Below are positions 46,517-60,786 of a stretch of 64,000 nt of DNA, one piece after another; position 1 is the stretch's first letter; the number at the start of each line of letters is the position of its first letter. The stretch lies in assembly GCA_041737385.1 (NCBI GenBank), contig JBGSRU010000002.1:461437-525436 (forward strand), given 5' to 3'. Under the pieces are notes generated by a model, which saw only the letters and a program-made list of their open reading frames with translations, searched no databases and was not told where the DNA came from. Made by a program: the position numbers and the translations under genes. The DNA is from Candidatus Saccharimonadales bacterium (GTDB lineage Bacteria; Patescibacteriota; Saccharimonadia; Saccharimonadales; SZUA-47).

Positions 46517-47680
46517 CTATTGTTCTGGGGCTGCTTCTAGCGTTACCTGCAACGATTTCTCTTGTCCATCACGCTGCACTTTTATCTCTACGACGTTACC
46601 TACTCTTTTTTTACCGAGAATACTGACAACGCCATTTTTGTCGTCTAGTTTTATTCCATCGATTACTGTGATGACGTCTTCTGGAAGCAACCCTGCTTTT
46701 TCAGCTGGACTGTTTGGAATTATTGAAGGTCTTTGCGGAGATGATTCAGGAATATATGCACCCTGCTCTTGGCTTATTTCTAGTTGTGTTGCTATCTCGG
46801 GCGTGAGAGACACATACCGAACACCAAGGTACGGTCTTTCAAGCTTGCCTGTTTCTAAAACAATTTCTATGAGTATTTTCACGTCATTAATTGGAATTGC
46901 GAAGCTAATATTTTCAGCGCTCGCTGTTGCGACGTTGATACCAATGACTTCGCTTGCTGTATTAACAAGCGGACCGCCGGAATTACCGCCGTTTATTGCG
47001 GCATCTGTCTGAAATAAATTCTGTAATGTTTCAATGCCATTACCGTCTGATGCTTCAATATCACGACCAAAACCAGAAATTATTCCACTTGTGACCGTAT
47101 TGCTGAACTCACCGAGCGCATTACCAATTGCTATTACTTTATCGCCCACCTCAACTTCGTCAGAGTTGCCTAGTTTAATTGGCTTTATGTCAAGTCCTGA
47201 GGGATCTTTGATCTTCAGAAATGCAATGTCTAATGGGTCGCTAGTATTAGTGCGGCCAACTACTTCTACATCTTCTACAACTGTTCCGTCTGATAGTGTA
47301 ACGCTCACACTAGTTGTATCTGTTGGGACGACGTGACGGTTCGTAATAATGAGACCACTCTCGCTGATCACAAATCCAGTACCAGCTGCCTGTGTCTCGC
47401 GCTGCTGTCCAAACCCAAAGAAATCAGTCGTGGTTGATGTTCCTTTGACATTTACTGATACAACACTCGTATTAACGTCTTTAACAATAGTATTAATTAA
47501 ATTCCCTTCACTGTCTATAATCTCGCGCTGTACTTTGATGTCATTACTAGAATCTATCACGTTGGTTTGAGCGCCAAAATATCCACCGAAGAATCCTGAA
47601 GCGATTGCAACCATACCAAACGCAATTAGCCTGGATAATTCACTGCTCGCTTTTTTTGTAGATTTTGCCACCTTTTTCAT
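46517..47680 (-). CDS. htrA: HtrA/DegP-family serine protease with PDZ domain
   Basis: N-terminal TM anchor, trypsin-like fold with GNSGGPLVN (Ser nucleophile) and a C-terminal PDZ (PAEKAGLLPEDVITVIDG). Confidence 0.88.
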   Translation of the reverse strand: MKKVAKSTKKASSELSRLIAFGMVAIASGFFGGYFGAQTNVIDSSNDIKVQREIIDSEGNLINTIVKDVNTSVVSVNVKGTSTTTDFFGFGQQRETQAAGTGFVISESGLIITNRHVVPTDTTSVSVTLSDGTVVEDVEVVGRTNTSDPLDIAFLKIKDPSGLDIKPIKLGNSDEVEVGDKVIAIGNALGEFSNTVTSGIISGFGRDIEASDGNGIETLQNLFQTDAAINGGNSGGPLVNTASEVIGINVATASAENISFAIPINDVKILIEIVLETGKLERPYLGVRYVSLTPEIATQLEISQEQGAYIPESSPQRPSIIPNSPAEKAGLLPEDVITVIDGIKLDDKNGVVSILGKKRVGNVVEIKVQRDGQEKSLQVTLEAAPEQ

Positions 47681-47687
47681 ACCTTTC

Positions 47688-48440
47688 TTAAATTATGTCT
47701 CCGCTCCAGTCAGAAAAAACAAGGATAAACATGACTATGGCTACCATAACCATGACAAACTGGCGACGAACACCCTTACTTAATTTGTCGGTGTGCTGTA
47801 AATAATATAGTGCAGCCATGCTATAGCCTATCACCGTAATTATGAGAGCAGGCTGAGCAATAAACTTATAGTACAGAAGCCAGTGCGTAGCAAGCCATGT
47901 CAGGGCTGCACTGAAAAAGGCCCAGACATAGGCACTCGCTCGTGCCATCGACTCATCAAAAGCAGCAAGAAAGTGGCGAGCACATAAATAGGTTATTCCC
48001 CAAACGGCAAAAGTTAAAAGCGTTTCACTTGACTCGTTCCACACAAGGAAAATAGCGATCAAACTCAGTGTTTGCGCAATCAGCGCCTGCACGCCAATCC
48101 ATAAACTCGTAGATTGTCGCTTGATAAACAAGAGCCAGCCAATATATGCGAGCACCCACCCAGCTTGGAATAGCTGTACTTGTGTTAATGACATGAAAAC
48201 TACAACTGATAACCCGACGAGAATATCTACTGCGTTAGCACGGATGTTAGCAGGCCAGTGTCTAAACTTAACCGCAAAGATACGCCACTTACTAAGTAAA
48301 ATCACCGCAAATGCGAATGCAACAAACTCTAATCTTACGAGGGCAAACAGGAGTAACGGCATGAATACCACAAATAAATTGTGGAAAATTGAAGCGAAGC
48401 TTCCCTTGGGTTTAGTTTGACGTGGTTTTAAAAGCCTCAT
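47688..48440 (-). CDS. hypothetical multi-pass membrane protein
   Basis: 250-aa ORF with about 7 hydrophobic segments. Start uncertain (overlaps the LCP gene stop by 29 nt; an internal Met is possible). Confidence 0.5.
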   Translation of the reverse strand: MRLLKPRQTKPKGSFASIFHNLFVVFMPLLLFALVRLEFVAFAFAVILLSKWRIFAVKFRHWPANIRANAVDILVGLSVVVFMSLTQVQLFQAGWVLAYIGWLLFIKRQSTSLWIGVQALIAQTLSLIAIFLVWNESSETLLTFAVWGITYLCARHFLAAFDESMARASAYVWAFFSAALTWLATHWLLYYKFIAQPALIITVIGYSMAALYYLQHTDKLSKGVRRQFVMVMVAIVMFILVFSDWSGDII

Positions 48441-50121
48441 TGCTACCTAGTATTATAACAAAGTCAGCAGTCTCATTTGTCGGTAGTCCAGTAATAACTT
48501 TAGAAGATTTTGTAAGCCCCAATCTCTTTTCTAGATAACTCGCTGTATAAGGGTTGGCGCCGTTACTTAGATCGATCATTTCTGATTCAACATAATTATC
48601 AGTTGGAGCGTTGTCGACGCCGACTACATTATAGCCGTACGATCTAAGCTCTATCTCTCTGGCAGTTGCGAGACCTGGAGTTGATGTGCCGTTCAGAATC
48701 AATACTCTTGCATCTTCTTGACGCAAAAACGCGTCCCGAAGAGTGTTTCTGACATATGAACGTATATCTTCGTACTGATATAGACCAGCCACAGGTAGTA
48801 CTACAGATTGGTTTGCATAAAAATCAGTTGTTACTAAGATATTTGGAGGATCTGCAAGCCCAACTGACACAAACTTGTCTGGCCCTATTTCTTGACCAAT
48901 CTCGTATAAACGCTTTAGCTCTCCAGTACCATTCAAATCTGTTCGAACATTGTTACCAAGAGAGGTGACGAGTTCGACAATTTTGAACGGGTTTGAAAAA
49001 GTACCAACACTAAGTGCTTTCTGCTGCAGGGCAAGAATTACTTCTCGTTGACGTTCTGTTCTATCGAAATCACCTCTGGCACTTCCATACCTAGATCGTG
49101 AATATAATAGTGCTCTATAGCCGTTGAAGCTCTGGAGGCCTTCGTCTGCAAGCAATGCACTGCCATTATTCAAGTGGGCCATAGTGCCATCATATAACGG
49201 TTCTTTGACATCAATTGTAATGCCGCCAACAGTGTCTATTGACTCTTGGAACGCTTTAAAATCAACCATAATATAGTAGTGCACCGGTACACCCAGTACA
49301 TCACTAACTGTTTGCTTGAGCGCTTTAAGACCTACATCTTCTGCAGTTTGTAGTTCACTATCAGAATCACCTGTTTGGCTAATCTTGTTCTGTTTTGCGT
49401 TGGAGTATACTGCGTTGATTTTTGATGCATTACCGTTTGGATCTTTTACATATAAATCTCGTGGAATACTCAGAAGCGCGGCTTCGTTCTGTACAGGATC
49501 AATACTCGCAACTAGAATCGTATCCGTTAGATCAGGTGCGGTTTGCCCAGGACCACCTTTTCCGAGCAGGAGAATATTCACGCGGCCGTCACCTTCACCG
49601 TTCAGTCTAGACGGATCGACATTATTCTGTAATGCAGCTGCTCCTTCGCCATTTCCTCGGAAAATCTGTCGAGTCTTCAGGTAGCTGTAGCCTAGTATTG
49701 ATCCGGCACCAATAAGAAGCACCAAAGAGAACACACCAAATCCTCTTGCAAGTCTTCTGATTGGGCCTTTCTTATGTTTCTTTGAATGCTTAGAATTTCT
49801 TCGAAGACTAAAACGGCGTTTTTTATGGTGATTATTTTCGTCACCCAGCTGAAGATCAAACAGTGCTTTTGCATTGCCTCTATAGCCGTTGCTTTGACTT
49901 GAGTCATATGTTTTTACTGTTTCAAAAGAGCCATTTTTTGGAGTAAAACCTTCTTGCCCTTTTAAACTTTCGTTAAGTGGGCGTGTTGTCTCGGGCCGAT
50001 AGTTCTGCCTGAAACGTTTACGGACATCTTCACCCTTGTCTAGATTATTCGTAGAAGGCAAAAAACCATCAATAGATGATGCTGGCTTCTTTCGTTTTGG
50101 GTTATGTTTAAATTCATTCAT
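48412..50121 (-). CDS. LytR-CpsA-Psr (LCP) family cell-envelope phosphotransferase
   Basis: Cytoplasmic basic N-terminus, one TM, LCP core RVNILLLGKG...DTILVASIDPVQNEAALLSIPRDLYV and a LytR_C-like C-terminal domain. Confidence 0.85.
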   Translation of the reverse strand: MNEFKHNPKRKKPASSIDGFLPSTNNLDKGEDVRKRFRQNYRPETTRPLNESLKGQEGFTPKNGSFETVKTYDSSQSNGYRGNAKALFDLQLGDENNHHKKRRFSLRRNSKHSKKHKKGPIRRLARGFGVFSLVLLIGAGSILGYSYLKTRQIFRGNGEGAAALQNNVDPSRLNGEGDGRVNILLLGKGGPGQTAPDLTDTILVASIDPVQNEAALLSIPRDLYVKDPNGNASKINAVYSNAKQNKISQTGDSDSELQTAEDVGLKALKQTVSDVLGVPVHYYIMVDFKAFQESIDTVGGITIDVKEPLYDGTMAHLNNGSALLADEGLQSFNGYRALLYSRSRYGSARGDFDRTERQREVILALQQKALSVGTFSNPFKIVELVTSLGNNVRTDLNGTGELKRLYEIGQEIGPDKFVSVGLADPPNILVTTDFYANQSVVLPVAGLYQYEDIRSYVRNTLRDAFLRQEDARVLILNGTSTPGLATAREIELRSYGYNVVGVDNAPTDNYVESEMIDLSNGANPYTASYLEKRLGLTKSSKVITGLPTNETADFVIILGSNEAFKTTSN

Positions 50122-50231
50122 AGGTTCAAGATACTATTATATCTTTTTTAAGTGATTTAGTAACATTGTTTTTGTCTAATTACATATAAATCTTTCGTAA
50201 TTACAGTCTACATTACTGTATAGTTTGCAAC

Positions 50232-50876
50232 ATGGATTTACAACAGTCTGAACCAACACAACCAAGTAATTTGCCGTCAAGTAGTCCGAGGTTTGATTCA
50301 TTTCGGCGACGAGCACGAGGTGTATCTGGCACTATTCTATTACTTGTCGCTGCACCGCTACTCGCACTCTTTCTTACTGCCCATGTGTTTCAGCCTTACG
50401 AAGTGGATGGTCAGAGTATGGAGACGACACTTCAAAACACTGATAGGCTCATAGTTTTTAAACTACCTAAAACGATTTCAAATATATTCAGTGGTGACTA
50501 CGCACCCGCTAGACACGACATCATTGTCTTTGATCGACCTAAACAGCTTAGCGCACCGGAGAGTACACAACATCTCATTAAAAGAGTTATAGCCCTACCT
50601 GGTGAGCGGGTCGTTGTTAAAGACGGTCGAGTCACGGTATACAACGAAGCCAACCCTTCCGGTTTTGATCCAGATAAAGGACAAGAGTACTCTAATGATA
50701 TCGTCTCGACGCGTGGTAATGTTGATATTACCGTTGGCAAAAACGAGTTTTTCGTACTTGGCGACAATAGAGACAACTCAAGTGACTCACGAATATTCGG
50801 TACTATACAAAATAGCATTATTGTTGGACAAGCCACCCTACGATTCATACCTATCAACAGTATGCAGCGTTTATAG
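50232..50876 (+). CDS. lepB: signal peptidase I
   Basis: TM anchor, Ser box VDGQSMETTL, Lys box KRVIALPGE and GDNRDNSSDSR. Confidence 0.88.
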   Translation: MDLQQSEPTQPSNLPSSSPRFDSFRRRARGVSGTILLLVAAPLLALFLTAHVFQPYEVDGQSMETTLQNTDRLIVFKLPKTISNIFSGDYAPARHDIIVFDRPKQLSAPESTQHLIKRVIALPGERVVVKDGRVTVYNEANPSGFDPDKGQEYSNDIVSTRGNVDITVGKNEFFVLGDNRDNSSDSRIFGTIQNSIIVGQATLRFIPINSMQRL

Positions 50877-50899
50877 CTCGACTACTTACGATAAGCTAC

Positions 50900-51763
50900 T
50901 CAAGATTCTAATGTGTTCAAGAAAGTATCTAATTCCGCTTCATTTTTATATTCAAAAGTAACTACTCCACCTTGTTTTCTGTGTTTGATCTTTATGTGTA
51001 TACCTTTGTTTTTAAGTGTATTTAACTTCTTAGATTGTAAGCTAGAAAGTGAATACTTTTTTTGTTCATAGCTAGAATTGTTTGCATCTTTTTGTCTTTG
51101 AACAAAAGCTTCTGCTTCACGCACTGACAAGGATTTATCCATGATTTCTTTTAATAATTCTTCTTGGATTTCTGGGTTATTTTTCAGTGATAGAATACTG
51201 CGAGCATGCCCTTCTGATATTTTATTTTGCTGTAGCGCTTTTATTGCACTTTCCGGAAGCTGTAGTAAGCGAATAATATTACTAACTGTGGTTTCTGCCT
51301 TGCCTAATTTCTTCGATATATCCTTTGGAGTTAATGAGAATTGATCACGCAAACGTACAATCGAAACTGCAGTTTCTAGTGGGCTCAAGTCAACTCTTTG
51401 TACATTCTCTACAAGAGCAATTTCCAGTTCTTCAAGCTCTCTATGATTTCGGATAATAACTGGCACTTCTTTTAAAGCAGCTATCTGTGCTGCGCGAAAG
51501 CGACGCTCACCCGCAACGATTCGATAGCTCCCGTTGTGCGATGATGTTGCAACAAGTGGCTGTATGATTCCGTGCTGCTTTATTGAAGAAGCGAGTTCTT
51601 CAAGTGAGCGTTGATCAAACGATTTTCTGGGTTGATCTGGATTTGCAACAAGCTTTTCAAGCGGAAGCAACTTAATCTGCTCATTCGTCCCGGTAACGTC
51701 AGTAACTGCGAAACCAGTTGGTATCAATCCCTCAAAACCTTTTCCGAGAGCTTGTTTACTCAT
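50900..51763 (-). CDS. parB: chromosome partitioning protein ParB
   Basis: ParB box IVAGERRFRAA and HTH region. Start placed at ATG 51763 (MSKQALGKGFEGLIP), an ATGA overlap with the parA stop. Confidence 0.9.
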   Translation of the reverse strand: MSKQALGKGFEGLIPTGFAVTDVTGTNEQIKLLPLEKLVANPDQPRKSFDQRSLEELASSIKQHGIIQPLVATSSHNGSYRIVAGERRFRAAQIAALKEVPVIIRNHRELEELEIALVENVQRVDLSPLETAVSIVRLRDQFSLTPKDISKKLGKAETTVSNIIRLLQLPESAIKALQQNKISEGHARSILSLKNNPEIQEELLKEIMDKSLSVREAEAFVQRQKDANNSSYEQKKYSLSSLQSKKLNTLKNKGIHIKIKHRKQGGVVTFEYKNEAELDTFLNTLES

Positions 51764-52512
51764 TTCTGTACCATCTCTTTCACAAGTGCTTTGTAGGCTC
51801 TTGCACCTTTTGACCATTTGTCGTGTTCAAAAATAGTTTTACCGAAGCTTGGTGATTCTGCGAGTCGCACATTACGGGGAATTTGTGTTTGATAAACGTA
51901 GTCACCAAAATGCTTTTTCACTTCGTCTATTACTTGACTCGACAATACGTTCCGAGTGTCAACCATTGTCATGACAATTCCTTCAAGTTGTAAGCTTGGG
52001 TTTAAACCAGCCTGAATACGTTGAATTGTTTGCATCAATAGCCCAAGTCCTTCAAGCGCGTAAAATTCTGTTTGTACAGGTATCAACACACTATCTGCAG
52101 CAACCAATGCGTTTATTGATAGCAAGCCTAATGAAGGAGGACAATCTATCAACACTACTTCAAATGCAAGATGTTGGAGTGCGTTTTTTAATACAGTTTC
52201 TCTCGATAATACTGAAACAAGTTCTTGTTCAGCCGCTGCCAGTGATGTAGAAGCTGGGAGCACAAATAACCCATCAACGTGAGTTTCCTCCACTACTTCT
52301 CCGATGGACTGTCCGTCAACTAGGACTTCATATACTGAGCTCTCTAGTCTAGTTTTATCAATCCCTAGCCCGCTCGTTGCGTTTGCTTGTGGATCTAAAT
52401 CAATCACAAGTACTGATCTACCAGATTTTGCCATAGCAGCTGCAACGTTAATAGTAGTAGTCGTTTTACCGACACCACCCTTCTGATTTAAAACTGCAAT
52501 GATTTTACCCAA
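51760..52512 (-). CDS. parA: chromosome partitioning ATPase ParA/Soj
   Basis: Deviant Walker A NQKGGVGKTTTTINVA and DLDPQANAT. 250 aa. Confidence 0.93.
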   Translation of the reverse strand: MGKIIAVLNQKGGVGKTTTTINVAAAMAKSGRSVLVIDLDPQANATSGLGIDKTRLESSVYEVLVDGQSIGEVVEETHVDGLFVLPASTSLAAAEQELVSVLSRETVLKNALQHLAFEVVLIDCPPSLGLLSINALVAADSVLIPVQTEFYALEGLGLLMQTIQRIQAGLNPSLQLEGIVMTMVDTRNVLSSQVIDEVKKHFGDYVYQTQIPRNVRLAESPSFGKTIFEHDKWSKGARAYKALVKEMVQK

Positions 52513-52567
52513 CTATTTTACCCCTGTAAGTTATAGCTATAATAACACAAATACACACCAGAATTGG

Positions 52568-55500
52568 CTACCTTATGTTTCTGCCTTCACACCATGCATG
52601 AGTACCTGCGTTGAAAGTTCCTGTACTTGTAAGGAATGTAACTGTCGTAATTGCATTTGTCGTATTTGACCAGTTGCCTGTTCCACTATAGCGACGGTTA
52701 TTTGTCCCTATGCCTGTTACTCCACTATAAGACCAGTCTACAATTTTTTGAGTATCCACAAAGTTAGTAATACGTAGTGTTGCACTTGCAGGTATTACTC
52801 CGGTGTCAAGACCCGTTAGTTGTATCTCGCTGTCTGAACTATCTTGAGCGTCACCAACAGCATTGTTAATTATATCGTACTCATTCCATCCGTAAGATGC
52901 TGCACCTGAATCACCGTTAAAACGTAAGTATATGCCGCCTGCTACCGATCGACCCTTGGTGTCTATTCTGCATTCAATATATTCAGTTCCTGATGCTAAG
53001 TTTAATGTAATTGTTCCACTCGCTGCACTAAGTGTTGATTCTGCTAGAACACGCTTTGAAGCACAATCAGACCAAAATCCACCTTCATAACAACGAGATT
53101 TACCGTCAGCAGAATTGTAGTAACTTCCTCCGTTAATACCCGTTGGATCTCCAGTTGTGTTTTTTGTATCTAGCACGAATAATACGCCAACAGCATCTGC
53201 CGTAATCGATCCGACTCTAACAGTTCCAGTACTTGTATCGATGCTAAAGTAACTTAAGCCTCCAACATTTCGAATATCTAAAGCTGTTGAACTAGTGGAT
53301 TGAATTTGTAATGCTCCTGTATTTGCTACAGTGAATACGGCTCCACCGTTTCTTTGAAGATTAATGAGATTCCCAGTAGCCGAAGTTTTGTTGACGGCCA
53401 ATACATCATTGTTTGAAGCATCCGTCTGGATGACTCCCGCAGCTAGCCTCAAATAACCACAGGTATTTGTATTACTTAGACAAATTGTACCGGCTTCATC
53501 TGGCAACGATACTGCCCTTGCAACTGTTGCGTTTGAGTTGATTGTTGATTGGCCTAAAACGAGTCCAGCGCTAAAGGTTTTCGTTCCACTGAAGGTTTGA
53601 GAGCCAGCAAGCTGAGCAACGTTAGCAGATAATCTTGCATCGGCTACAGTACCAGTCGATACATTTGTTCCGTTAAGAGCTGTAAGCCCTGAGCCATCTC
53701 CAGTAATTGCTGTACCTGCGATTGTACCAGTTACTGTAATATTTCCAGTAACGCCTACACTTGCACTGAAAGTTTGGCCACCATTCAGCAATGCAACGTT
53801 AGTTGAGAGTCTTGCGTCAGCGACAGTCCCGCTAGATATATTAGTACCATCCAATGTTGTTAGTCCGGAGCCGTTGCCACTGAATGCATTTGCTGATACG
53901 GTGCCGCTAAACGTTGGAGCGTTTCCTATCGTAATTGCTCCGCAAGTACCGCCGGTACCGAGAGTAATTGTATTGCCACCGCCGCTTAGATTACCACTTC
54001 CTGACGGACATATTAATGTAATGTTTCCTTGTACTGCGGTGTTAGCAGCTGAACCGTATATTACGTTGAGTGCGTTGCCGCTGAATGTCAAACCATTACC
54101 TGTTAGATCTGTAAATGCTTCGCCGTTGACTGTTAAGTTCTGGCCAGTTGTTACAGTTAGTCCAGCGCCAAATGTTTTAAGACCAGAGAATGATTGTGAT
54201 CCGGTTAACAATGCCACATTAGTAGATAATCTTGCGTCATCTAGAGTTCCTGAGGCAATGTTTGATGCATTGACATTGGTAATACTTCCACCGGATATAT
54301 TTGCACCATTTAAGTTAGTTAAGCCTGAGCCGTTTCCGCTAATAACTCCTGCTACGGAAAGCCCATTAGATACAATTACGTCACCTGTTGAGCCATCAAT
54401 ATTTATTCTCGCTAGACCATTCGTGATCAAGTTCAGATCAAACGTATCTGCTGTTCCTAGGTTTGCATCTATACCAAAACTGTTTCCGCTCTGAATAAAC
54501 GGCTGTGCAAATCCTGCTGTTAGTTCATCTGTTTTTTCCGCAATTGTCCAAGACTGTCCAGCAAGACTTAATTGTGCTCCACTACTTCCTGCTTGTGAAC
54601 ACACAACTTCGTAGTACTCATTATTTAGTGTTGTTTGTATGTAAGCGCTTGCTGAGTTAGAACTATTACCATCGGTCACATTTCTTACATATGAGTATGA
54701 TCCACCAGGTGTGTTATATGTAGTACCGTTAAGAAGTATACGGCAATAGATATTGTTTCTATTGGCGCCGCCATTGAAGCCACTAATATTATAGCTAATC
54801 TTATACCATCCTGGATTATCTATATAGACACGGGTATTATCAACTGAATTACTGTGTGCAAAACCTGGATCTTTTTTGGATTCAGAGCCCCAAGGAAGTG
54901 GCGTTGGAGTTGGATCATTAAGATCTGTTCCTCCAGCTGAATCATACACTTGAATAACTGCAACTCCTAAATTAACTGGAGTGCCTGTGAACGACTGCCA
55001 TGTCAGTCCGTCAAATCCTTGGAACGCTGTTCCGTTCCACCTAATGGTTCCGGCTACAGTGGCTGTTGAGTTCCCGATTACTAATCCATTATCAAATGTG
55101 TTTACTCCGCTAAATGTTTGTGTACCGTCTAACAAAGAAACATTTCCAGACAATCTACCATCATCAAGACTACCGGTTGCTATATTTGATGCACTTAACC
55201 CAGTTATTACTGAGCCTGAGATATTTGCTCCATCTAGATTAGTAATTCCGGATCCGTCACCACTAATAACTCCAGATACAGATAGTCCTCCGCCAATCTC
55301 TGTGTCGTTTCCGTTAGACTGGAGCTTTAATGCAGTAGTGCTTTGAATGCTTCCATCGCTAATCGTCGTTGAGCCAGCGCCGACAACAACTCCGCCTAAG
55401 AAATACCCTTGAAAGAATCGGTTGCTCTGCGAAGTATAGTCTGTTGTTGTTGCGCCTATATTCTGCACACTATACTTAGTCACTGTTCGTGCGCTTTCAA

Positions 55501-58500
55501 ATGTGATTGAAGGAGACACTATATATGTACCCGTCCCAGGATCCGACGCAATTCTCGTATAATAATCTTGCCCTATATTATCTATAAGTATCACGTCATT
55601 TAATTCAAACGAATCAGCAGCTAACGTAAGCGTCGTAGTGTTTGTACCTGTGCCACTAGTCGTACCCGTTGTTGCAGTAGCTGATTGATTAGCAACAAGA
55701 TCACCGCTGAGAGTAGTTAGTCCGGCAATCGAAACATCTCCACTATTAGATATGCCTATTCTCTCAATATTATTAGTTATGATAGATAAACCATTATTAT
55801 CACTAGTTCCAAGTATCGCTGGGCTTCCAAATGAATTACCATTCTGAACGAATGGTTGTCCTGATCCACCTGCGCCAATAGAACGAATTGCTTGGACGTA
55901 ACTTCCGCTAAAGACAATTGTATTTGTCGCATTAGAGACTTGTTGAGCCCACTGCAAAGTTATGTTGCCAGCTGTAGGGCCGTTTTTCACTGATCCCGTG
56001 ATTTCATATAAATCATTTGCGGCATTACCAGATATAAGACCTGTTGAGATTCCACATCCAAGCTGCGCAATCGAAGTTGCACCTTCTGGATCGCTGTAAG
56101 CAACCCGGCAAACTGCACCTGAAGGAGCAGCAACAGCAAATTTGATGTCAGGAACGGCTGCTGCATTAGCCTGAACAACAAACCTATACGTCCATTCTTC
56201 GTTTGGTCCTATTGAGAAAGTTAATTCATCATCATTTTGCAGGGTTATATTACTTATAACTGATTCATTAACTTGCTTAACTTTAGATACTATATTTTGA
56301 CTAGCGCCCGATCCCCCACCGCCAGATGTTAGAGATCTCCAAGTCGCTCCATCAAATCCTTCAAAGTCTAGACCGGTCCAACGAATTGTACCAGCTGTAG
56401 TAGATGAACTATTTCCAACCGTAAGACCTCCTGACGCAGTTACATTCCCGGTGCTATCAACACTAAAAGTATCAGTTCCATTGTTTTGTACTTTGAATTT
56501 TCCATTTGATCCGCTTAAAATATCGATTATAAAATTGCTATCAATCGCTGTGTCTGCGAGACTGATTGTAAAATCTTTATTGTCTGCAGTTAGAATTGAG
56601 GCAGAAAGTGAGTTGTCATATACGTCTTGAAGGGTGCTTAAACCGCCACTCCCGCTACCTGCACCTCCGTCATACTCAACGCTCCAGTAAACAGTAAAGT
56701 CATTTGTGTTAACAGGAAGAAAACCAGCACTAGTATCAAAAGCTAGCCCAATGGTATCTCCAGCAGAAAATGTTACAACTCCTGGGTTTAGAACAGAAGC
56801 TGACTGACGATTTGTAGTTGAATCCATGTCACAGACCGTTGAGCCAACTCGAGCTCCGTTAACCGTCCACCTAAGAGCGAGTGTGCCAGCGGTTATATTT
56901 GCAGTGTTTTTTATTAAACAAGTTCTGAAGCTACCATCTGCAGGTGCAGTGAAGCCCGTAACTCCTGCGACATTTGAAACAGCGGTTGCAGAAGTGAACA
57001 CCAAGGTTTCGACTATAGCACCCGTTGCGTTTGCTGGGGCATTTTGTAAGCCTGAAATAAAGCTTGCAGTTGTTCCTGTATAGGTACCGCCACTTCCACC
57101 ACCAATACAATCTTTCCATTCCCCATCTTCATAACAACGGAATTTACCGAGCGCGCTATTGTAGTACATTGCTCCATCAACGCCAGTTGGATCGGCAATA
57201 TCTGTTTTGGTATCGAGAACTAATAGCGTCCCTGCTGTGTCAGCTTGGCCGATATTTACATTCAGCCCGCTTTGTATGTTTATCCCCCCACTACCACTTT
57301 GTAGTAGTGTTGCCGCGGAGCCTACCGAGCCACCGAACGTTGCTTGTGAATTCAGCGTATCAACTTTCAAGAATGAGCTACCAAGTGTGTCTTGAACATC
57401 AAAAGCATTTACTGAATTTGTGTTATTTTGTGCCAAAACTGAACCTTTCAGTGTAGTTGAACCGTTTGTACCGAACTCTGCAACCACATTACCGTCTGTG
57501 ATGATTTGTAAGTTATTTGTATCTGTTGTACCGAGTATTGCCGTTGAGCCAAATGCATTCCCATTTTGTTCAAAACTAGTTCCACTTCCGCCGCCCGCTG
57601 CAACTCCAGTTATGGATATGGTATCAAGCCCAAAATCGTTATTCCAAACACTTCCAACTGAGCCAAGCGTCACCAAGAATCGAACTTGAGTTGAAGCATT
57701 TGATATCACTCCCGTTAAATCAAGATTTTCAAGATTCCACTGTTGTGTACCTCCTGTTGCGACATCTGGGCCACCTGATCCGTATGTACCGCGAGTTACC
57801 CAGCCAGCACTAGCTTCGTTAGTTTGAACTTCAACAATAGCAACATTGTCATTTCCTCTTTGGTTCCAGTAAAAATCAACAGTCCAATCATTTGTACTAG
57901 CGTCTATCACCGTGTTGTGAGTCATCGTGAAAGTATCGCCGCCAGCTGCAGGTGAAGTCGCTTCGGTATATACATAGCCATCTGGATTACCTCCTTGACC
58001 CGATGTAGGTCCAACATCTGTTGATGGAGTGTCATTTGTATCGTGAGACCAGGCTCTTGCGGTTCCTGAAGCGTTTAAGCCGTTAGAGCCGTTATCAGAT
58101 ACAAAGCTCCATGCAGATTCATCGGCATCGTTATCATTATCAAAAGTGTACGGCCCATAAACACCCGGACCGCCAGCACTTCCACTACCTAAAGCCGTTA
58201 ATGATTTCCAAACTATTCCATCATAACCCTCAAAATCAAATCCTGTCCATCTAATCATTCCAGCATTGGCATTCGATGTATTGCCAATTTGCAAACCGGC
58301 ACTTAGTATCGTTTCTCCAGATTTCAGAATGCTAAACACATCGACTCCATCACCTTGAAGTTGCAAAAGATTACCTGTACCAACTTGATTTATACGAAGC
58401 GCTGCTAGTGCGCTGCTAACCGTTTGGACATTAGCTGGTGCAAGTTGTGCGAAATCATCAGCAGTCTTAGCATTTCCTGCAGAGTCAACAAGGGCACCCG

Positions 58501-58942
58501 CCCTAAGAGCATACGGCACTGCGGTCAATTTAAATCGAGGTGTCATTTCTCCGTCGCTGTTGACGTTCATTGTTAGCCACATATCTTGATCCCATGGTAT
58601 TGAACCGCCAAACGCTGTTGTGTCGCCTAGATAAACACTGAAATAACCATTCTTAACCGTAACTGCAGAACCACCTGTTCTGGTTTCTGTCCACCAGTTA
58701 GTTCCAGCAGATGGATCATCATAAATCTTGAACTCGATATTGTACGACCCATCAGGAACCAACCCTCCAGTACTCGTTAATAATCTTCCCTGAAAGTTAA
58801 GTGTAGAAGAGGTTGCAGCGGTTGTGTTACTCGTGGATCCAAGAACAGTAACAGATAGAATAAGCAAAATAAAAAGTGGCAAAAATATACCTTTAAAAGA
58901 TATATTTTGCCACAGAGTGTGCCTTTGCTTATAGTTAGTCAT
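52568..58942 (-). CDS. giant (2124 aa) membrane-anchored surface protein built from tail-fibre-like repeats
   Basis: N-terminal signal anchor and an LNFQGRL...VPYALRA domain. MAM-like module at aa ~262-446 (ends NDFGLDTISI). Three copies of GTIRW(T/N)G..F(E/Q)G(F/Y)DG..W.S(L/F)T and four or more copies of G(D/N)GSGLT.L(N/D)G(A/T)N(I/V)S.G.(L/V)(D/A)DARLS.NVA.L.G.Q.FSG.KTF. Two Cys-pair motifs DPTG..G..YYNS..GK.RCYE.G.W.DC. Confidence 0.75.
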   Translation of the reverse strand: MTNYKQRHTLWQNISFKGIFLPLFILLILSVTVLGSTSNTTAATSSTLNFQGRLLTSTGGLVPDGSYNIEFKIYDDPSAGTNWWTETRTGGSAVTVKNGYFSVYLGDTTAFGGSIPWDQDMWLTMNVNSDGEMTPRFKLTAVPYALRAGALVDSAGNAKTADDFAQLAPANVQTVSSALAALRINQVGTGNLLQLQGDGVDVFSILKSGETILSAGLQIGNTSNANAGMIRWTGFDFEGYDGIVWKSLTALGSGSAGGPGVYGPYTFDNDNDADESAWSFVSDNGSNGLNASGTARAWSHDTNDTPSTDVGPTSGQGGNPDGYVYTEATSPAAGGDTFTMTHNTVIDASTNDWTVDFYWNQRGNDNVAIVEVQTNEASAGWVTRGTYGSGGPDVATGGTQQWNLENLDLTGVISNASTQVRFLVTLGSVGSVWNNDFGLDTISITGVAAGGGSGTSFEQNGNAFGSTAILGTTDTNNLQIITDGNVVAEFGTNGSTTLKGSVLAQNNTNSVNAFDVQDTLGSSFLKVDTLNSQATFGGSVGSAATLLQSGSGGINIQSGLNVNIGQADTAGTLLVLDTKTDIADPTGVDGAMYYNSALGKFRCYEDGEWKDCIGGGSGGTYTGTTASFISGLQNAPANATGAIVETLVFTSATAVSNVAGVTGFTAPADGSFRTCLIKNTANITAGTLALRWTVNGARVGSTVCDMDSTTNRQSASVLNPGVVTFSAGDTIGLAFDTSAGFLPVNTNDFTVYWSVEYDGGAGSGSGGLSTLQDVYDNSLSASILTADNKDFTISLADTAIDSNFIIDILSGSNGKFKVQNNGTDTFSVDSTGNVTASGGLTVGNSSSTTAGTIRWTGLDFEGFDGATWRSLTSGGGGSGASQNIVSKVKQVNESVISNITLQNDDELTFSIGPNEEWTYRFVVQANAAAVPDIKFAVAAPSGAVCRVAYSDPEGATSIAQLGCGISTGLISGNAANDLYEITGSVKNGPTAGNITLQWAQQVSNATNTIVFSGSYVQAIRSIGAGGSGQPFVQNGNSFGSPAILGTSDNNGLSIITNNIERIGISNSGDVSIAGLTTLSGDLVANQSATATTGTTSGTGTNTTTLTLAADSFELNDVILIDNIGQDYYTRIASDPGTGTYIVSPSITFESARTVTKYSVQNIGATTTDYTSQSNRFFQGYFLGGVVVGAGSTTISDGSIQSTTALKLQSNGNDTEIGGGLSVSGVISGDGSGITNLDGANISGSVITGLSASNIATGSLDDGRLSGNVSLLDGTQTFSGVNTFDNGLVIGNSTATVAGTIRWNGTAFQGFDGLTWQSFTGTPVNLGVAVIQVYDSAGGTDLNDPTPTPLPWGSESKKDPGFAHSNSVDNTRVYIDNPGWYKISYNISGFNGGANRNNIYCRILLNGTTYNTPGGSYSYVRNVTDGNSSNSASAYIQTTLNNEYYEVVCSQAGSSGAQLSLAGQSWTIAEKTDELTAGFAQPFIQSGNSFGIDANLGTADTFDLNLITNGLARINIDGSTGDVIVSNGLSVAGVISGNGSGLTNLNGANISGGSITNVNASNIASGTLDDARLSTNVALLTGSQSFSGLKTFGAGLTVTTGQNLTVNGEAFTDLTGNGLTFSGNALNVIYGSAANTAVQGNITLICPSGSGNLSGGGNTITLGTGGTCGAITIGNAPTFSGTVSANAFSGNGSGLTTLDGTNISSGTVADARLSTNVALLNGGQTFSASVGVTGNITVTGTIAGTAITGDGSGLTALNGTNVSTGTVADARLSANVAQLAGSQTFSGTKTFSAGLVLGQSTINSNATVARAVSLPDEAGTICLSNTNTCGYLRLAAGVIQTDASNNDVLAVNKTSATGNLINLQRNGGAVFTVANTGALQIQSTSSTALDIRNVGGLSYFSIDTSTGTVRVGSITADAVGVLFVLDTKNTTGDPTGINGGSYYNSADGKSRCYEGGFWSDCASKRVLAESTLSAASGTITLNLASGTEYIECRIDTKGRSVAGGIYLRFNGDSGAASYGWNEYDIINNAVGDAQDSSDSEIQLTGLDTGVIPASATLRITNFVDTQKIVDWSYSGVTGIGTNNRRYSGTGNWSNTTNAITTVTFLTSTGTFNAGTHAWCEGRNIR

Positions 58943-59310: not shown

Positions 59311-59922
59311 TTACTCTGCGAGTTGATGTTTGATTTCGTCTAGCGTGTTTTTGTAGTCTGCGTGGTCCTGAATGAACGAACTGTACTCTGCCGTAGATTT
59401 ATCCATCATCACCCTTTCCGGTTTTACCCAGTTCGAGAATAATTTACCTAGATACTGAGATAGACTAGAGTACTCCCACTGCATGTAGTCACGAGGATTG
59501 AGGTGAATATAGCGAGTAATGTGCTCTAGGTACGCCTCATCATCGATCAACGACGCTTTGAATACTCCCTGGAACAGATGACCTACCCTGTTATGCCTCT
59601 TGTTGTAGTAGGTTGTGTACGATCCAGAAACCTTCCTCATTAACTCTGTTATCGATGCAGTGTTTTTGTCCAGATAGAGCAGCAGATGAAAATGGTTAGG
59701 CATGAGGCAGAAGGCGTTTAGTTCAACTCGCTCGCTGTAGTTTTCATATACATTACCTCTATTGTCTTCAGATTTTTCAGGGCTTAGATACCTTTTCAGT
59801 AGATTCATAAAGACAGCATAGTCTTCTTTGTCGCTATAGATGATTTGCTTATTCACACCTCTGTTGTAGACGTGATAGAAGTGCCCTTCTCCGTATTGCT
59901 TGATTACATTTTTGCTTGGCAT
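59311..59922 (-). CDS. IS200/IS605-family Y1 (HUH) transposase, RAYT-like
   Basis: HFYHVYNRGVNKQ N-terminus, HUH motif MPNHFHLLL, Tyr helix SYTTYYNKRHNRVGHLFQGVFKA and YIHLNPRD. 203 aa. Confidence 0.8.
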   Translation of the reverse strand: MPSKNVIKQYGEGHFYHVYNRGVNKQIIYSDKEDYAVFMNLLKRYLSPEKSEDNRGNVYENYSERVELNAFCLMPNHFHLLLYLDKNTASITELMRKVSGSYTTYYNKRHNRVGHLFQGVFKASLIDDEAYLEHITRYIHLNPRDYMQWEYSSLSQYLGKLFSNWVKPERVMMDKSTAEYSSFIQDHADYKNTLDEIKHQLAE

Positions 59923-60220: not shown

Positions 60221-60487
60221 CTAGTAGACTTGGCTATGGGTGCCAATGTCTAAGAATATGAAAGTATCGTCTGTTTCTTTATATATTATCCTTATGTCTC
60301 CCGATATTGAAAAAGCTCGCAAGCCTGACTTTTTGCCTATAAGCGCGTGGTCGTTGATTGGGTTACCCCTTTCTCCATTTAAAAATATTCTTACTCGTTC
60401 TTCGAATTGTTTTTGTATCTTTGGATTTCTAGCAACTCGAGACAAATAGTTCTTTGTGAACTTTTTATCTCTTTGTATGTTTTTCAT
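60221..60487 (-). CDS. type II toxin, RelE/YafQ (mRNA interferase) family
   Basis: 88 aa. KFTKNY...NDHALIGKKSGLRAFSISGDIRIIYKETDDTFIFLDIGTHSQVY fits the RelE/YafQ C-terminal pattern (H.L.G....R....D.R.iY.......l..iG.Hs.vY). 4-nt overlap with the upstream antitoxin. Confidence 0.8.
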   Translation of the reverse strand: MKNIQRDKKFTKNYLSRVARNPKIQKQFEERVRIFLNGERGNPINDHALIGKKSGLRAFSISGDIRIIYKETDDTFIFLDIGTHSQVY

Positions 60488-60786
60488 AATTCTCTTAAGT
60501 CAGCTAGAAATTCTTCTGGATCGGTATAAGTCTTCACTTTGCCGGCTTTTAAGTCTTTTTCGAACCCTTCTAGTTGTTTCATGTAGCGAGCTTCGGCTTC
60601 AGGGCTTAATTTTCGTTCATCTGAATTAGTAAGGTTGAACTGCAAATTATTATTCAACACCGTGCTGTACATAACTCTTGTGAAATCCTGTACGGAACTA
60701 AAGCCCATAGACTTTGCATGTTTTTCTACCCTATCGCGCAAGGTCTTATCTAGCGGTATTTGAAGTTTAACGGTTGAATCACTCAT
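60484..60786 (-). CDS. type II antitoxin (RelB/DinJ-like, ribbon-helix-helix N-terminus)
   Basis: 100 aa. N-terminal VKLQIPLDKTLRDRVEKHAKSMGFSSVQDF is RHH-like. Position and ATGA coupling to the toxin gene support the call. Confidence 0.7.
   Translation of the reverse strand: MSDSTVKLQIPLDKTLRDRVEKHAKSMGFSSVQDFTRVMYSTVLNNNLQFNLTNSDERKLSPEAEARYMKQLEGFEKDLKAGKVKTYTDPEEFLADLREL

Follow-up and report, generated by a model that had tools for sequence, protein, structure and literature searches.

A predicted secreted, modular fibre protein encoded beside parA in a Saccharibacteria genome: a candidate for host recognition

Very large surface proteins of Patescibacteria have been proposed as adhesins, among them the FhaB-domain proteins of Patescibacterium danicum (PMC11809585) and the large surface proteins of Absconditicoccaceae (PMC13059738), and the same proposal was made for essential lectin-like envelope proteins of Southlakia (PMC10633639). 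The protein described here comes from the same kind of organism and has the same proposed role, and domain reshuffling was suggested for those proteins too, but they differ from it in their domains (FhaB, fibronectin III, VCBS and dockerin). No description of its N domain, its tail-fibre cassettes or the parA-adjacent site was found in the literature searched.

The gene lies at 52568..58942 on the minus strand of the window (the whole stretch of 64,000 nucleotides that was analyzed), and all features given below are on this strand. It is a single frame with an ATG start, 2124 codons, no internal stops and a stop codon at 52568-52570, and its product is a predicted secreted modular fibre protein. 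The original prediction of one intact 6.4-kb frame ending 55 nt short of parA was confirmed on the sequence. No terminator-like site was predicted in the 55-nt spacer (52513..52567) between the stop codon and parA. Downstream, parA (51760..52512; TTG start; Pfam AAA_31/CbiA) and parB (50900..51817; Pfam ParB_N/HTH_ParB) mark the locus; the neighbours also include lepB and the genes for SecA, HtrA and a protein of the LCP family. In GC content the fibre gene is like the window. The same window also holds a 507-aa pilin-like gene. The source organism is a member of the Saccharibacteria, in agreement with the reduced-genome episymbiont that had been predicted. A search for homologues gave 288 proteins, and the sequence places the fibre protein in a very large Saccharibacteria family that lacks annotation.

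The N-terminus had been read as a signal anchor, which is probably wrong. The first 42 residues (58817..58942) look like a cleaved signal peptide, with a basic n-region (YKQRHTLWQ), a hydrophobic core at aa 18-35 (GIFLPLFILLILSVTVLG) and a predicted cleavage site after T-T-A42. Ala was present at position -6 before LNFQ in 110 of 113 homologues, and A, V or T at -8 in 108 of 113. Because this [A/V]-x-A signal-peptidase-type site is conserved after the hydrophobic N-terminus, cleavage is indicated rather than anchoring. The core is the sole hydrophobic segment of the entire 2124-aa protein and, together with the signal peptide, this supports an extracytoplasmic location well. The mature protein would start with the N domain (58358..58816; aa 43-195), which contains LNFQGRL (aa 48-54) and VPYALRA (aa 142-148) followed by a linker. 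This domain was the first module in 119 of 120 listed homologues, and its profile (A1) matched 38,067 clusters, always near the N-terminus; Pfam and PDB sequence searches gave no match to it. Signal peptide plus conserved N domain appear from these sequences to be the hallmark of the family, and the invariance of the N domain leads us to propose that it is the cell-proximal end.

Past the N domain, members of the family carry shuffled cassettes (connector A, knob, connector B and tail-fibre repeats), then a T-C neck and a tip. This module grammar was counted over the 120 listed homologues. Connector A precedes knobs family-wide, being found before knob Z in 81 of 94 cases and before knob V in 35 of 37, and connector B followed Z in 92 of 94 cases and V in all 37.

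In the fibre protein, connector A copy 1 (58178..58357; aa 196-255, GMIRWTGFDFEGYDG..W), a self-repeat with aa 819-878 and 1272-1319, leads into knob X (57593..58177; aa 256-450), a predicted jelly-roll beta-sandwich of the MAM, cleaved-adhesin or CBM type. The AlphaFold2 model of knob X had a pLDDT of 79.4 and a pTM of 0.78. Foldseek comparison with the PDB gave E-values of 1e-6 to 1e-4, with TM scores of at most 0.64 on the target and 10-16% sequence identity; the matches were enteropeptidase and meprin chains, the MAM domains of neuropilin-1 and scavenger receptor C, gingipain K1/K3 adhesin domains, CBM61/CBM4 and a Klebsiella phage tailspike. The MAM-like beta-sandwich originally predicted here, ending in NDFGLDTISI (aa 435-444), therefore holds at the level of fold but not of family membership, since Pfam MAM was not matched even at E<=1 and knob X contains no cysteines.

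Connector B copy 1 and adjoining shaft (57245..57592; aa 451-566, FEQNGNAFG..ILGTTD..), a self-repeat with aa 1025-1085 and 1480-1548, are followed by C motif copy 1 (57098..57244; aa 567-615, VLDTK..DPTG..YYNS..RCYE.G.W.DC; pair Cys603-Cys612), which matched aa 1915-1960 with E=1.4e-18. Knob Y (56633..57097; aa 616-770; alignment A3) is beta-rich with a conserved Cys pair (675, 704). It gave weak matches to BclA and TNF ligands only (E 0.07-0.8), and 1 of the 12 members of its alignment matched BclA_C; a C1q/TNF-like fold is possible. Linker L and connector A copy 2 (56309..56632; aa 771-818 and 819-878) lead to knob Z (55883..56308; aa 879-1020; Cys pair 945/963), the commonest knob of the family, with 100 occurrences among the 120 listed proteins, 94 of them internal and 6 terminal. 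Pfam searches gave no match to knob Z or to module W, which follows with connector B copy 2 (55289..55882; aa 1021-1085 for the connector and 1086-1218 for W). The tail-fibre-type repeat D1 and connector A copy 3 (54983..55288; aa 1219-1271 and 1272-1320) precede knob V (54518..54982; aa 1321-1475; Cys pair 1400/1448), which is BclA_C-like (C1q/TNF-type). Its match to Pfam BclA_C (PF18573) had an E-value of 9.7e-4 and 19.4 bits, under the cut-off of 38, and all 12 sequences of alignment A2 (knob V with 11 homologues) matched BclA_C, the best at 6.3e-8. Connector B copy 3 and the shaft D2-U-D3-D4 (53543..54517; aa 1476-1800), also made of self-repeats, complete the region before the neck. The 16 cysteines of the protein lie two to a module in eight modules, and across the module alignments the pairs of V, Y and E show little or no variation.

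Every repeat listed in the original prediction was found. The self-matches had E-values of 1e-15 to 1e-33, well outside what chance would give, the strongest of those named here being aa 1219-1320 against aa 1527-1622 (E=1.2e-33). The quoted motifs were likewise found in place: three copies of G(T/M)IRW(T/N)G..F(E/Q)G(F/Y)DG..W.S.T (aa 228-249, 851-872 and 1298-1319), four units of G(N/D)GSG(L/I)T.L(N/D)G.N(I/V)S (starting at aa 1228, 1536, 1689 and 1748) and two VLDTK...RCYE.G.W.DC motifs (aa 575-612 and 1923-1960). The first copy of the first motif reads GMIRW...FEGYDG and so departs slightly from the quoted GTIRW consensus. Self-comparison added a repeat that had not been listed, F.Q.GN.FG...LGT (aa 451-500, 1025-1085 and 1480-1548). 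The suggestion that these repeats make the gene prone to recombinational variation found no support within the gene: their DNA identity is only 70-74%, there are no tandem arrays within the gene, and the window contains no silent copies elsewhere. The repeat sequences indicate that diversity does not come from slippage among them.

The neck (53063..53542) consists of T (aa 1801-1914) and C motif copy 2 (aa 1915-1960). This pair was present, directly preceding the tip, in 97 of the 120 listed homologues, and T and C are the best-conserved modules of the protein (84-93% identity to nearest homologues); the T region of the AlphaFold2 model is of low confidence. Tip domain E (52571..53062; aa 1961-2124, ending HAWCEGRNIR; Cys pair 1991/2118) was modelled with block-mean pLDDT values of 67-94. 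Against PDB structures it gave no significant match (best E 5e-3). The T-C-E model gave 137 matches at E<=1e-3 (best 9e-15) in BFVD, which holds predicted structures; many were phage proteins of about 170-200 aa, with TM scores of about 0.7-0.83, and some were named side tail fibre, Stf repeat, tail fiber or collagen repeat proteins. At the sequence level tip E had no match in PHROGs, IMG/VR or INPHARED. The last 150 aa of family members fell into 14 unrelated tip classes, of which E is one. E-type tips are 74% identical between species, and the tip is thus not hypervariable within its own class.

Further links to phages were found along the protein. Knob X was 45-55% identical to small stand-alone proteins encoded in phage tail modules, in one of which the homologue adjoins a lambda-J-like protein, and homologues at this level of identity were also found in 9 IMG/VR viral contigs. 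A tblastn search with aa 1527-1800 (the D/U region) matched an annotated tail fibre of Synechococcus phage S-SRM01 with E=1e-4 over 83% of the query; further tail-fibre and tailspike genes matched less strongly. A sub-threshold BppL_N match lay at aa 1779-1791. Several family members (e.g. P0102-P0108) carry Peptidase_S74. The whole fibre protein had no PHROG match. The original description of a phage-tail-fibre mosaic is supported by the X homologues in tail modules, the D/U tail fibre match, the C-terminal BFVD matches and the BclA_C-like knob V.

We compared the locus between species. We fetched 49 complete family genes from other species, and 29 of them lay directly upstream of parA, on the same strand and 31-252 nt from it, with ParA identity down to 49%, and the order fibre gene-parA-parB recurs. 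The proteins encoded by these 29 genes are 790-2499 aa long and bear at least 8 tip classes, so that the length and cassette variation expected between related genomes was not only confirmed but exceeded expectation. The modules of the 2124-aa protein differ in their nearest relatives, and there are several family paralogues per genome. In the genetically tractable Southlakia epibionticum, parA-parB-lepB-LCP is kept and ribosomal protein L21 lies upstream in the place of the fibre gene, which shows that a fibre at the parA site is not universal in the group.

We consider it reasonably probable that the gene encodes a Sec-exported extracellular fibre, laid out like a phage tail fibre, which acts in host recognition and attachment and changes by cassette exchange at the parAB site. 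Once the signal peptide had been removed at the conserved AXA site, the cell-proximal N domain would be followed by a shaft interrupted by four beta-sandwich knobs: X, Z and V, each flanked by connectors A and B, and Y, which comes after the first C motif and before linker L. The remaining shaft would be tail-fibre-type D repeats, and the T-C neck would bear an exchangeable C-terminal tip, here of type E. The fibre is probably a homotrimer, as suggested by its BclA_C/C1q-type knob and tail-fibre repeats and by relatives that bear Peptidase_S74; the models themselves are of monomers. Knobs and tip are of lectin-like or receptor-binding type and most probably bind glycans or proteins on the surface of the host bacterium; in this way the fibre would bring about host recognition and attachment or adjust them. 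Diversity would arise as whole cassettes and tips are gained, lost and exchanged, between lineages and with phages, at the site upstream of parAB. The host-recognition adhesin originally predicted is a candidate reading, inferred from architecture and the pattern of variation. Since related Saccharibacteria keep the gene beside parA while reshuffling its modules, the fibre is a good candidate for host recognition by these epibionts.

The protein might instead form a structural surface coat, a hair-like nap like BclA on Bacillus exospores, that spaces the tiny cell, protects it or screens it from threats such as phages or host defences, its variation being driven by evasion and not by host choice. 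The BclA_C-like knob V, the acidic composition (pI 4.2; rich in Gly, Thr, Ser and Asn), the 45 N-X-S/T sequons, the several paralogues per genome and the adjoining envelope-biogenesis genes lepB, LCP and HtrA are consistent with a coat. However, a collagen-like stalk is absent, none of the known coat or S-layer anchoring domains is present, the domains are of receptor-binding type (the MAM/CBM/adhesin-like knob X and the phage-type tip), and a conserved base with swapped tips is the signature of a receptor-binding fibre. We regard a coat as unlikely, although the two roles are not mutually exclusive.

A cleaved signal peptide without a retention device would also allow release from the cell. 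Neither LPXTG nor a second membrane segment was found, and wall-binding and S-layer domains were absent among the Pfam matches. The protein could then act away from the cell in aggregation, matrix binding or nutrient capture, as a soluble lectin, in keeping with the CBM-like fold of knob X, or as a fibre decorating a vesicle or a pilus, in keeping with the pilin-like gene in the window. Against this, no catalytic or toxin domain was detected, and the mature N-terminus is the N domain in essentially every family member, an invariance that, by analogy with phage fibres, speaks for docking to a conserved partner. Release is doubtful, and we give it little weight.

The modules common to phages, and the IS200-like Y1 transposase gene, toxin-antitoxin pair and Peptidase_S74 protein gene just upstream, might suggest a tail-fibre gene of a prophage, tailocin or other mobile element that lies beside parA by chance. 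This is very improbable: unlike virion fibres, the protein starts with a Sec signal peptide, and it lacks a PHROG match; the GC content is native; the flanking genes checked encode a toxin, the IS200-like transposase, an S74 fibre-like protein and housekeeping or envelope proteins, with no capsid, terminase or tail gene; and the site upstream of parAB-lepB-LCP is kept in the 29 species despite the ParA divergence. We take the fibre gene to be chromosomal and not part of a prophage. That the gene is decaying into a pseudogene, or is an assembly chimera of repeats, is scarcely credible, for although many related contigs break off inside family genes, which are evidently hard to assemble, the frame is unbroken, an identical product is on record from two public sources (a 531-kb NCBI genome contig and a Logan assembly of run SRR28170464), the internal repeats are too diverged for mis-assembly, and homologues in which Cys pairs are conserved exist for every module.

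Host recognition remains our preferred reading, and the fibre can be set beside several known systems. The trimeric autotransporter adhesins YadA, BadA and SadA are analogous in design to the A-knob-B grammar, with a limited vocabulary of heads, necks or connectors and stalks shuffled in number and order. However, no sequence or domain relation to them was found; the fibre has no C-terminal beta-barrel anchor, an outer-membrane device of no evident use to this organism, and its polarity is apparently opposite, with conservation at the N-terminus. BclA, the hair-like exosporium glycoprotein of Bacillus anthracis with a C-terminal C1q/TNF-like trimer (Pfam BclA_C), resembles knob V, and both proteins would be surface filaments bearing a BclA_C-type beta-sandwich, which is predicted here. 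In the fibre, the match is below the Pfam cut-off, the domain is internal and not terminal, many unrelated knobs are present and the collagen-like GXY stalk is absent. Knob X has a jelly-roll fold in common with MAM, the gingipain/HagA 'cleaved adhesin' and CBM4/CBM61 domains, but not family membership. Bacterial 'tail fiber domain-containing' proteins carry Peptidase_S74 (PF13884), an intramolecular chaperone, as do several family members and the 1736-aa product of the next large gene upstream, which suggests that they draw on one pool of fibre modules; the 2124-aa protein itself ends in tip E without an S74 domain. Phage tail fibres and receptor-binding proteins (lambda Stf, T4-type long tail fibres and BppL of lactococcal phage) differ in that the Saccharibacteria fibre has a Sec signal peptide, an N domain that is the hallmark of a cellular family and no Peptidase_S74 chaperone, and is encoded at a conserved chromosomal parAB site instead of a virion module. 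The plan is nevertheless common to both: a proximal end that is conserved, a shaft of repeats, and distal receptor-binding domains that can be exchanged.

The ORF at 52568..58942 on the minus strand opened with an ATG start and ran for 2124 codons in an uninterrupted frame. The identical 2124-aa fibre protein was recorded twice, on a 531-kb contig of an NCBI genome and in the Logan assembly of run SRR28170464. Since the frame was intact and the same protein came from two sources, the ORF is neither a reading artefact nor a pseudogene. All motifs quoted in the original prediction were recovered in their places: the hydrophobic stretch at aa 18-35, LNFQGRL at aa 48, VPYALRA at aa 142, NDFGLDTISI at aa 435, three copies of the hairpin-like motif GxIRWxG..FxGxDG..W (aa 228, 851, and 1298), four copies of the GxGSGxTxLxGxNxS unit (starting at aa 1228, 1536, 1689, and 1748), and two copies of a Cys-pair motif (aa 575-612 and 1923-1960). 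When pieces of the protein were compared with the whole, the repeats matched one another at E values from 1e-15 to 1e-33, and a further triplicated element, F.Q.GN.FG..LGT, was found at aa 451, 1025, and 1480. The DNA identity among these internal repeats was only 70-74%, no tandem arrays were found in the gene, and no extra or silent cassette copies were found elsewhere in the window. Tandem-repeat slippage and silent cassettes elsewhere in the window were therefore both rejected as sources of variation. Recombination between the gene's own repeats is thus not the driver of fibre variation, contrary to what had been expected from its modular repeats.

Modules were named from the self-comparison and then mapped onto the 120 best of 288 homologues, which were obtained by word-indexed search; none of the 288 was functionally named and almost none had a Pfam domain. 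The fibre protein reads SP-N-A-X-B-C-Y-L-A-Z-B-W-D-A-V-B-D-U-D-D-T-C-E, in which SP is the signal peptide, N the N domain, A and B connectors, X, Y, Z, and V knobs, L a linker, W and U further modules, D a tail-fibre-type repeat, C the Cys-pair motif, T-C the neck, and E the C-terminal tip. Among the 120 best homologues, N was the first module in 119, the T-C pair lay near the end in 97, and globular modules were placed between connector A and connector B. Knob Z was preceded by A in 81 and followed by B in 92 of 94 cases, and knob V was preceded by A in 35 and followed by B in all of 37 cases. Each protein contained 0 to 5 knobs and 0 to 7 D repeats, and the last 150 residues of the homologues fell into 14 tip classes without BLAST similarity to one another. 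The fibre protein followed this grammar, with a signal peptide and then the N domain at its N-terminus, A-knob-B cassettes in the shaft, and the T-C neck before an exchangeable tip. Compared profile against profile, X, Y, Z, W, V, U, T, and E showed no detectable similarity to one another and thus count as separate modules at the sequence-profile level.

In comparison with its closest relatives, the fibre protein had two additional stretches, A-X-B close to the N-terminus and A-V-B-D-U inside the D array, and its modules differed in their nearest relatives. The GC content across the modules was uniform and native, and a recent foreign origin of single modules was rejected for this reason. Close relatives read N-T-C-Y-L-A-Z..., in which order C-Y would resemble a former neck-plus-tip that is now internal, and long family members may be the product of shorter fibres fused end to end.

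The N-domain profile (A1) matched aa 42-205 of the fibre protein at 291 bits, and a scan of one genome per species gave 502 confirmed loci. Among the best 80 of these, almost every title named Candidatus Saccharibacteria, Saccharimonadia, or Saccharimonadales, and a few read 'Patescibacteria group'. When 1.84 billion cluster representatives were searched exhaustively with HMMER, 38,067 proteins matched at E<=1e-3, of which 15,576 also passed E<=1e-10; in the best 150 of the 38,067, the domain started nearly always within the first ~120 residues, mostly at residues 40-60. By these matches, the N-domain fibre proteins are a very large family, for which no counterpart was found in Pfam, NCBIfam, or PDB sequences. 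Of 84 N-domain matches analyzed, 32 ran off the contig end, and many public contigs stopped inside family genes (fetched loci L006, L009, L010, L016, L024-L026, and others). The family genes are systematically broken in short-read assemblies, and the family is thus under-counted and often truncated in databases.

The hydrophobic core of the fibre protein covered aa 13-38, and no hydrophobic window was found outside aa 10-39. Signal peptidase I classically requires small residues at -3/-1. Six residues before LNFQ, 110 of 113 homologues had an Ala, with A, V, or T two residues ahead of that Ala, and the site in the fibre protein reads T-T-A42-A43, the predicted cleavage falling between A42 and A43. 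A basic n-region, the hydrophobic core, and small -3/-1 residues, which mark a type I signal peptide, were all present as judged by rule rather than by a trained predictor. Because of the conserved [A/V/T]-x-A ahead of LNFQ, the N-terminus, originally taken for a signal anchor, was read as a putative cleavable signal peptide. In the n-region (aa 4-12; window 58817..58942), 33 of the 120 listed proteins carried a (Y)KQRH..WQ motif reminiscent of the Gram-positive adhesin signal-peptide motifs YSIRK and KxYKxGKxW. No NCBIfam model matched, and the conserved motif might mark a dedicated export or targeting route. The mature protein was acidic (pI 4.2). Its 16 Cys were distributed as two per module over eight modules, and the Cys pairs of V, Y, and E were conserved in the alignments, a pattern that would fit disulfides formed outside the cell.

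Knob X (aa 256-450) was modelled with AlphaFold2 from 26 sequences, which gave an all-beta structure (pLDDT 79.4, pTM 0.78), and a Foldseek search of the PDB with this model returned 124 matches at E<=1e-3. The best matches were an enteropeptidase chain (E 1.2e-6), meprin chains and the MAM domains of neuropilin-1 and insect scavenger receptor C (E about 1e-5 to 1e-4, TM up to 0.62), and further the 'cleaved adhesin' domains K1/K3 of Lys-gingipain, CBM61, CBM4, and a Klebsiella phage tailspike. The matches to CBMs and gingipain adhesin domains were as good as those to MAM. Canonical MAM domains carry conserved cysteines. No Cys was found between aa 256 and 450, and aa 250-455 had no Pfam match, MAM (PF00629) included, even at E<=1. 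The MAM-like beta-sandwich of the original prediction thus held for the fold, which matched solved MAM domains, and did not hold for family membership; knob X is MAM/CBM-like in fold only.

Used alone as the query, knob X identified 18 small proteins of 200-320 aa that were 44-60% identical by local alignment, and the contigs of two of them were examined for gene context. On the first contig, the X protein lay a few genes downstream of a match to the PHROG 'central tail fiber J'/'tail fiber protein' and of a 'tail protein'. On the second, it adjoined a BclA_C protein in a run of structural-looking genes, one of which matched PHROG head-decoration, virion-structural, and tail-fibre families. 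In one such arrangement, on a 66.7-kb contig of ENA ERZ6863445 with structural-looking genes (L085:8001-10142), a stand-alone 205-aa X protein was directly followed by a 501-aa BclA_C protein; this contig pairs two knob types that are both also present in the Saccharibacteria fibre protein. X was encoded on nine IMG/VR viral contigs, and the IMG/VR scan gave no relatives of tip E. A tblastn search of 50,697 phage genomes gave no match to knob X, and PHROGs searched with the X and E alignments gave no relevant family. A specific host link for the X-carrying phages was rejected, as their contigs ranged in GC from 0.39 to 0.66 and one tail protein was closest to phages of Proteobacteria.

Similarity to phage fibre proteins, in sequence or in fold, was also found in the shaft and the tip. 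The shaft segment D2-U-D3-D4 matched an annotated tail fibre of Synechococcus phage S-SRM01 (E=1e-4, 83% query cover) and, more weakly, other tail-fibre and tailspike genes. In the model of T-C-E, the E domain was confident (block-mean pLDDT 67-94) and the T region was poor. Foldseek gave nothing significant for this model in the PDB, and in the predicted viral structures of BFVD it gave 137 matches at E<=1e-3 (best 9e-15), so that the fold match of tip E is to predicted structures and to none that is solved. Many of these were Caudovirales proteins of 170-200 aa that superposed on E at TM 0.7-0.83, and longer ones were named collagen triple helix repeat, lambda Stf side tail fibre repeat, or tail fiber protein. 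Knob V matched Pfam BclA_C (PF18573) at E=9.7e-4 and 19.4 bits, below the cut-off of 38, and all 12 members of the V alignment matched BclA_C at E<=0.01 (best 6.3e-8); knob V is probably a BclA_C relative. The whole fibre protein gave only a sub-threshold BppL_N match in Pfam, PHROGs, NCBIfam, and PDB sequences, and nothing at E<=1e-3 by tblastn against the 50,697 phage genomes of INPHARED. Alignment profiles of N, V, Y, and E gave nothing significant against PDB sequences, the best being a NEAT-like protein (0.017), CD47 (0.023), and BclA (0.07). Peptidase_S74 is a chaperone typical of tail fibres and tailspikes, and not every tail fibre has it. The fibre protein had no match to Peptidase_S74 (PF13884), which was present in some family members and in the next large gene upstream in the window.

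The distance from the fibre stop codon to the TTG start of parA (51760..52512, adjoining parB at 50900..51817) was 55 nt, exactly as had been reported. No terminator-like site was predicted in this spacer, and co-transcription of the fibre gene with parAB is possible. An exact 24-mer from the spacer, used to look for near-identical strains in JGI metagenomes, had no match. In the three closest positional relatives that were looked up, the family gene sat immediately upstream of the parA-parB-lepB-LCP block, on the same strand. The fetched loci contained 49 different complete family genes; parA followed 31-252 nt downstream of 29 of them, with ParA identity at these loci ranging from 100% down to 49%. 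The variation in length and cassettes that had been proposed as a check was plainly there: the 29 parA-adjoining genes encoded 790-2499 aa, differed greatly in their cassette strings, and carried tips of at least eight classes. The data showed that the position is old and stable, while its content is fluid. Cultivated Southlakia epibionticum retains the parA-parB-lepB-LCP block, which was scored essential, and the gene upstream of it is that of ribosomal protein L21 (PMC10633639, supplement), so the fibre gene does not occupy the parA site in every lineage. In several species (L002-L004) the fibre gene was followed downstream by the longer conserved block of parA, parB, lepB (opposite strand), LCP, a 250-aa protein, and HtrA (window 46517..52512), and the same block is SEML1_0183-0187 in Southlakia. 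That the envelope-processing neighbours (signal peptidase I, LCP ligase, and HtrA protease) could act on the fibre is speculation.

The next large gene upstream (window 60841..64000, minus strand, running off the window end; L001:1-1102) encoded a second fibre-like protein of 1736 aa, with long Gly-rich repeats followed by a Peptidase_S74 domain (40.9 bits vs a cut-off of 22). It had no BLAST similarity to the 2124-aa fibre protein. The GC content was higher at this gene (0.515 at 62-64 kb); rRNA or tRNA was rejected as an explanation, none being found in the 60-64 kb region. An IS200-like Y1 transposase gene (59311..59922, minus strand, 203 aa) lay between both fibre genes. Homologues lay at the corresponding position, upstream of the family gene, in several other Saccharibacteria (L004/L012, L005, L014, and L022), so this transposase may be a fixed, possibly domesticated neighbour and not a recent insertion. 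A toxin gene of the YafQ/ParE type (88 aa), located between the transposase and S74 fibre genes, overlapped the end of a 100-aa ORF without a Pfam match, presumably its antitoxin (60221..60786, minus strand). Elsewhere in the window, an unusually long 507-aa protein (32798..34321, minus strand) had a pilin-type methylation motif at its N-terminus (N_methyl, 27.2 bits). It may belong, as a minor pilin or pseudopilin of large size, to the type IV pilus systems, whose importance for attachment in Saccharibacteria is known. A Fic/DOC domain (33 bits) was found in a 500-aa protein (5513..7015, minus strand) unrelated to the fibre.

The fibre protein is an exported modular protein that combines lectin-like or receptor-binding-type beta-sandwiches and tail-fibre-type repeats with a conserved N domain and neck and with swappable tips. 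We consider it rather probable that it acts as a secreted trimeric fibre, docked by its N domain, whose knobs and tip mediate or tune host recognition. The signal peptide would be cleaved, and the invariant N domain would be the end that docks on the producer, by analogy with the conserved end of phage fibres. Trimerization is suggested by the BclA_C-type and tail-fibre-type modules, and the knobs and tip would bind host-surface molecules. The main rival is a protective nap like that of BclA; we regard it as unlikely, and it would be compatible with adhesion. That the protein is a released lectin or fibre agrees with the finding of no retention device: no LPXTG-like motif for sortase anchoring was found, and in place of a YadA-type C-terminal membrane anchor the protein ends in tip E, which has neither a Pfam match nor a hydrophobic segment. 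This alternative is more doubtful still. A prophage or tailocin fibre is effectively excluded by the signal peptide and the conserved chromosomal context: the neighbours are parA, parB, lepB, LCP, HtrA, and SecA rather than a phage or tailocin tail module, and the position of the family gene was retained in 29 other species. An artefact has a smaller chance again and is effectively excluded by the intact frame.

Little is known of how ultrasmall epibionts, among them Saccharibacteria and further Patescibacteria, select and keep their hosts. Genetic support exists only for type IV pili and a few lectin-like envelope proteins (PMC10633639, PMC9894109, PMC12206443), and large Patescibacteria surface proteins with other domain contents were earlier proposed as adhesins (PMC11809585, PMC13059738, PMC10633639). 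No description of the N-domain family, its grammar, its phage-shared modules, or its parA address was found in the literature searched. The fibre locus is a concrete, sequence-defined candidate for a host-specificity determinant, and its conserved chromosomal address makes the family gene simple to locate, and to compare, in any genome or metagenome of Saccharibacteria. If the proposed role is true, host range could be predicted from the tip and knob types that a sequence encodes, and the occurrence of the same modules in phages would mean that receptor-binding domains pass between viruses and cellular parasites. Should the protein be a protective coat instead, it is still a major, previously undescribed surface component. 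As a tentative and broader proposal, Saccharibacteria might have taken over the phage receptor-binding fibre toolkit as their host-recognition apparatus; the hot-spot upstream of parAB would hold the main specificity fibre, its knobs and tip would be swapped between lineages and with phages, and its cassette content would largely set which bacteria can be attached to.

The fibre protein is like trimeric autotransporter adhesins only in design logic. From phage receptor-binding fibres it differs in the non-phage context of its gene, and as it fails this test of context it is not itself such a fibre. The likeness to them lies in the way of working and in common modules, and the family shows both their architecture and their evolutionary behaviour, in that base and neck are conserved, knobs are shuffled, and tips fall into at least 14 classes.
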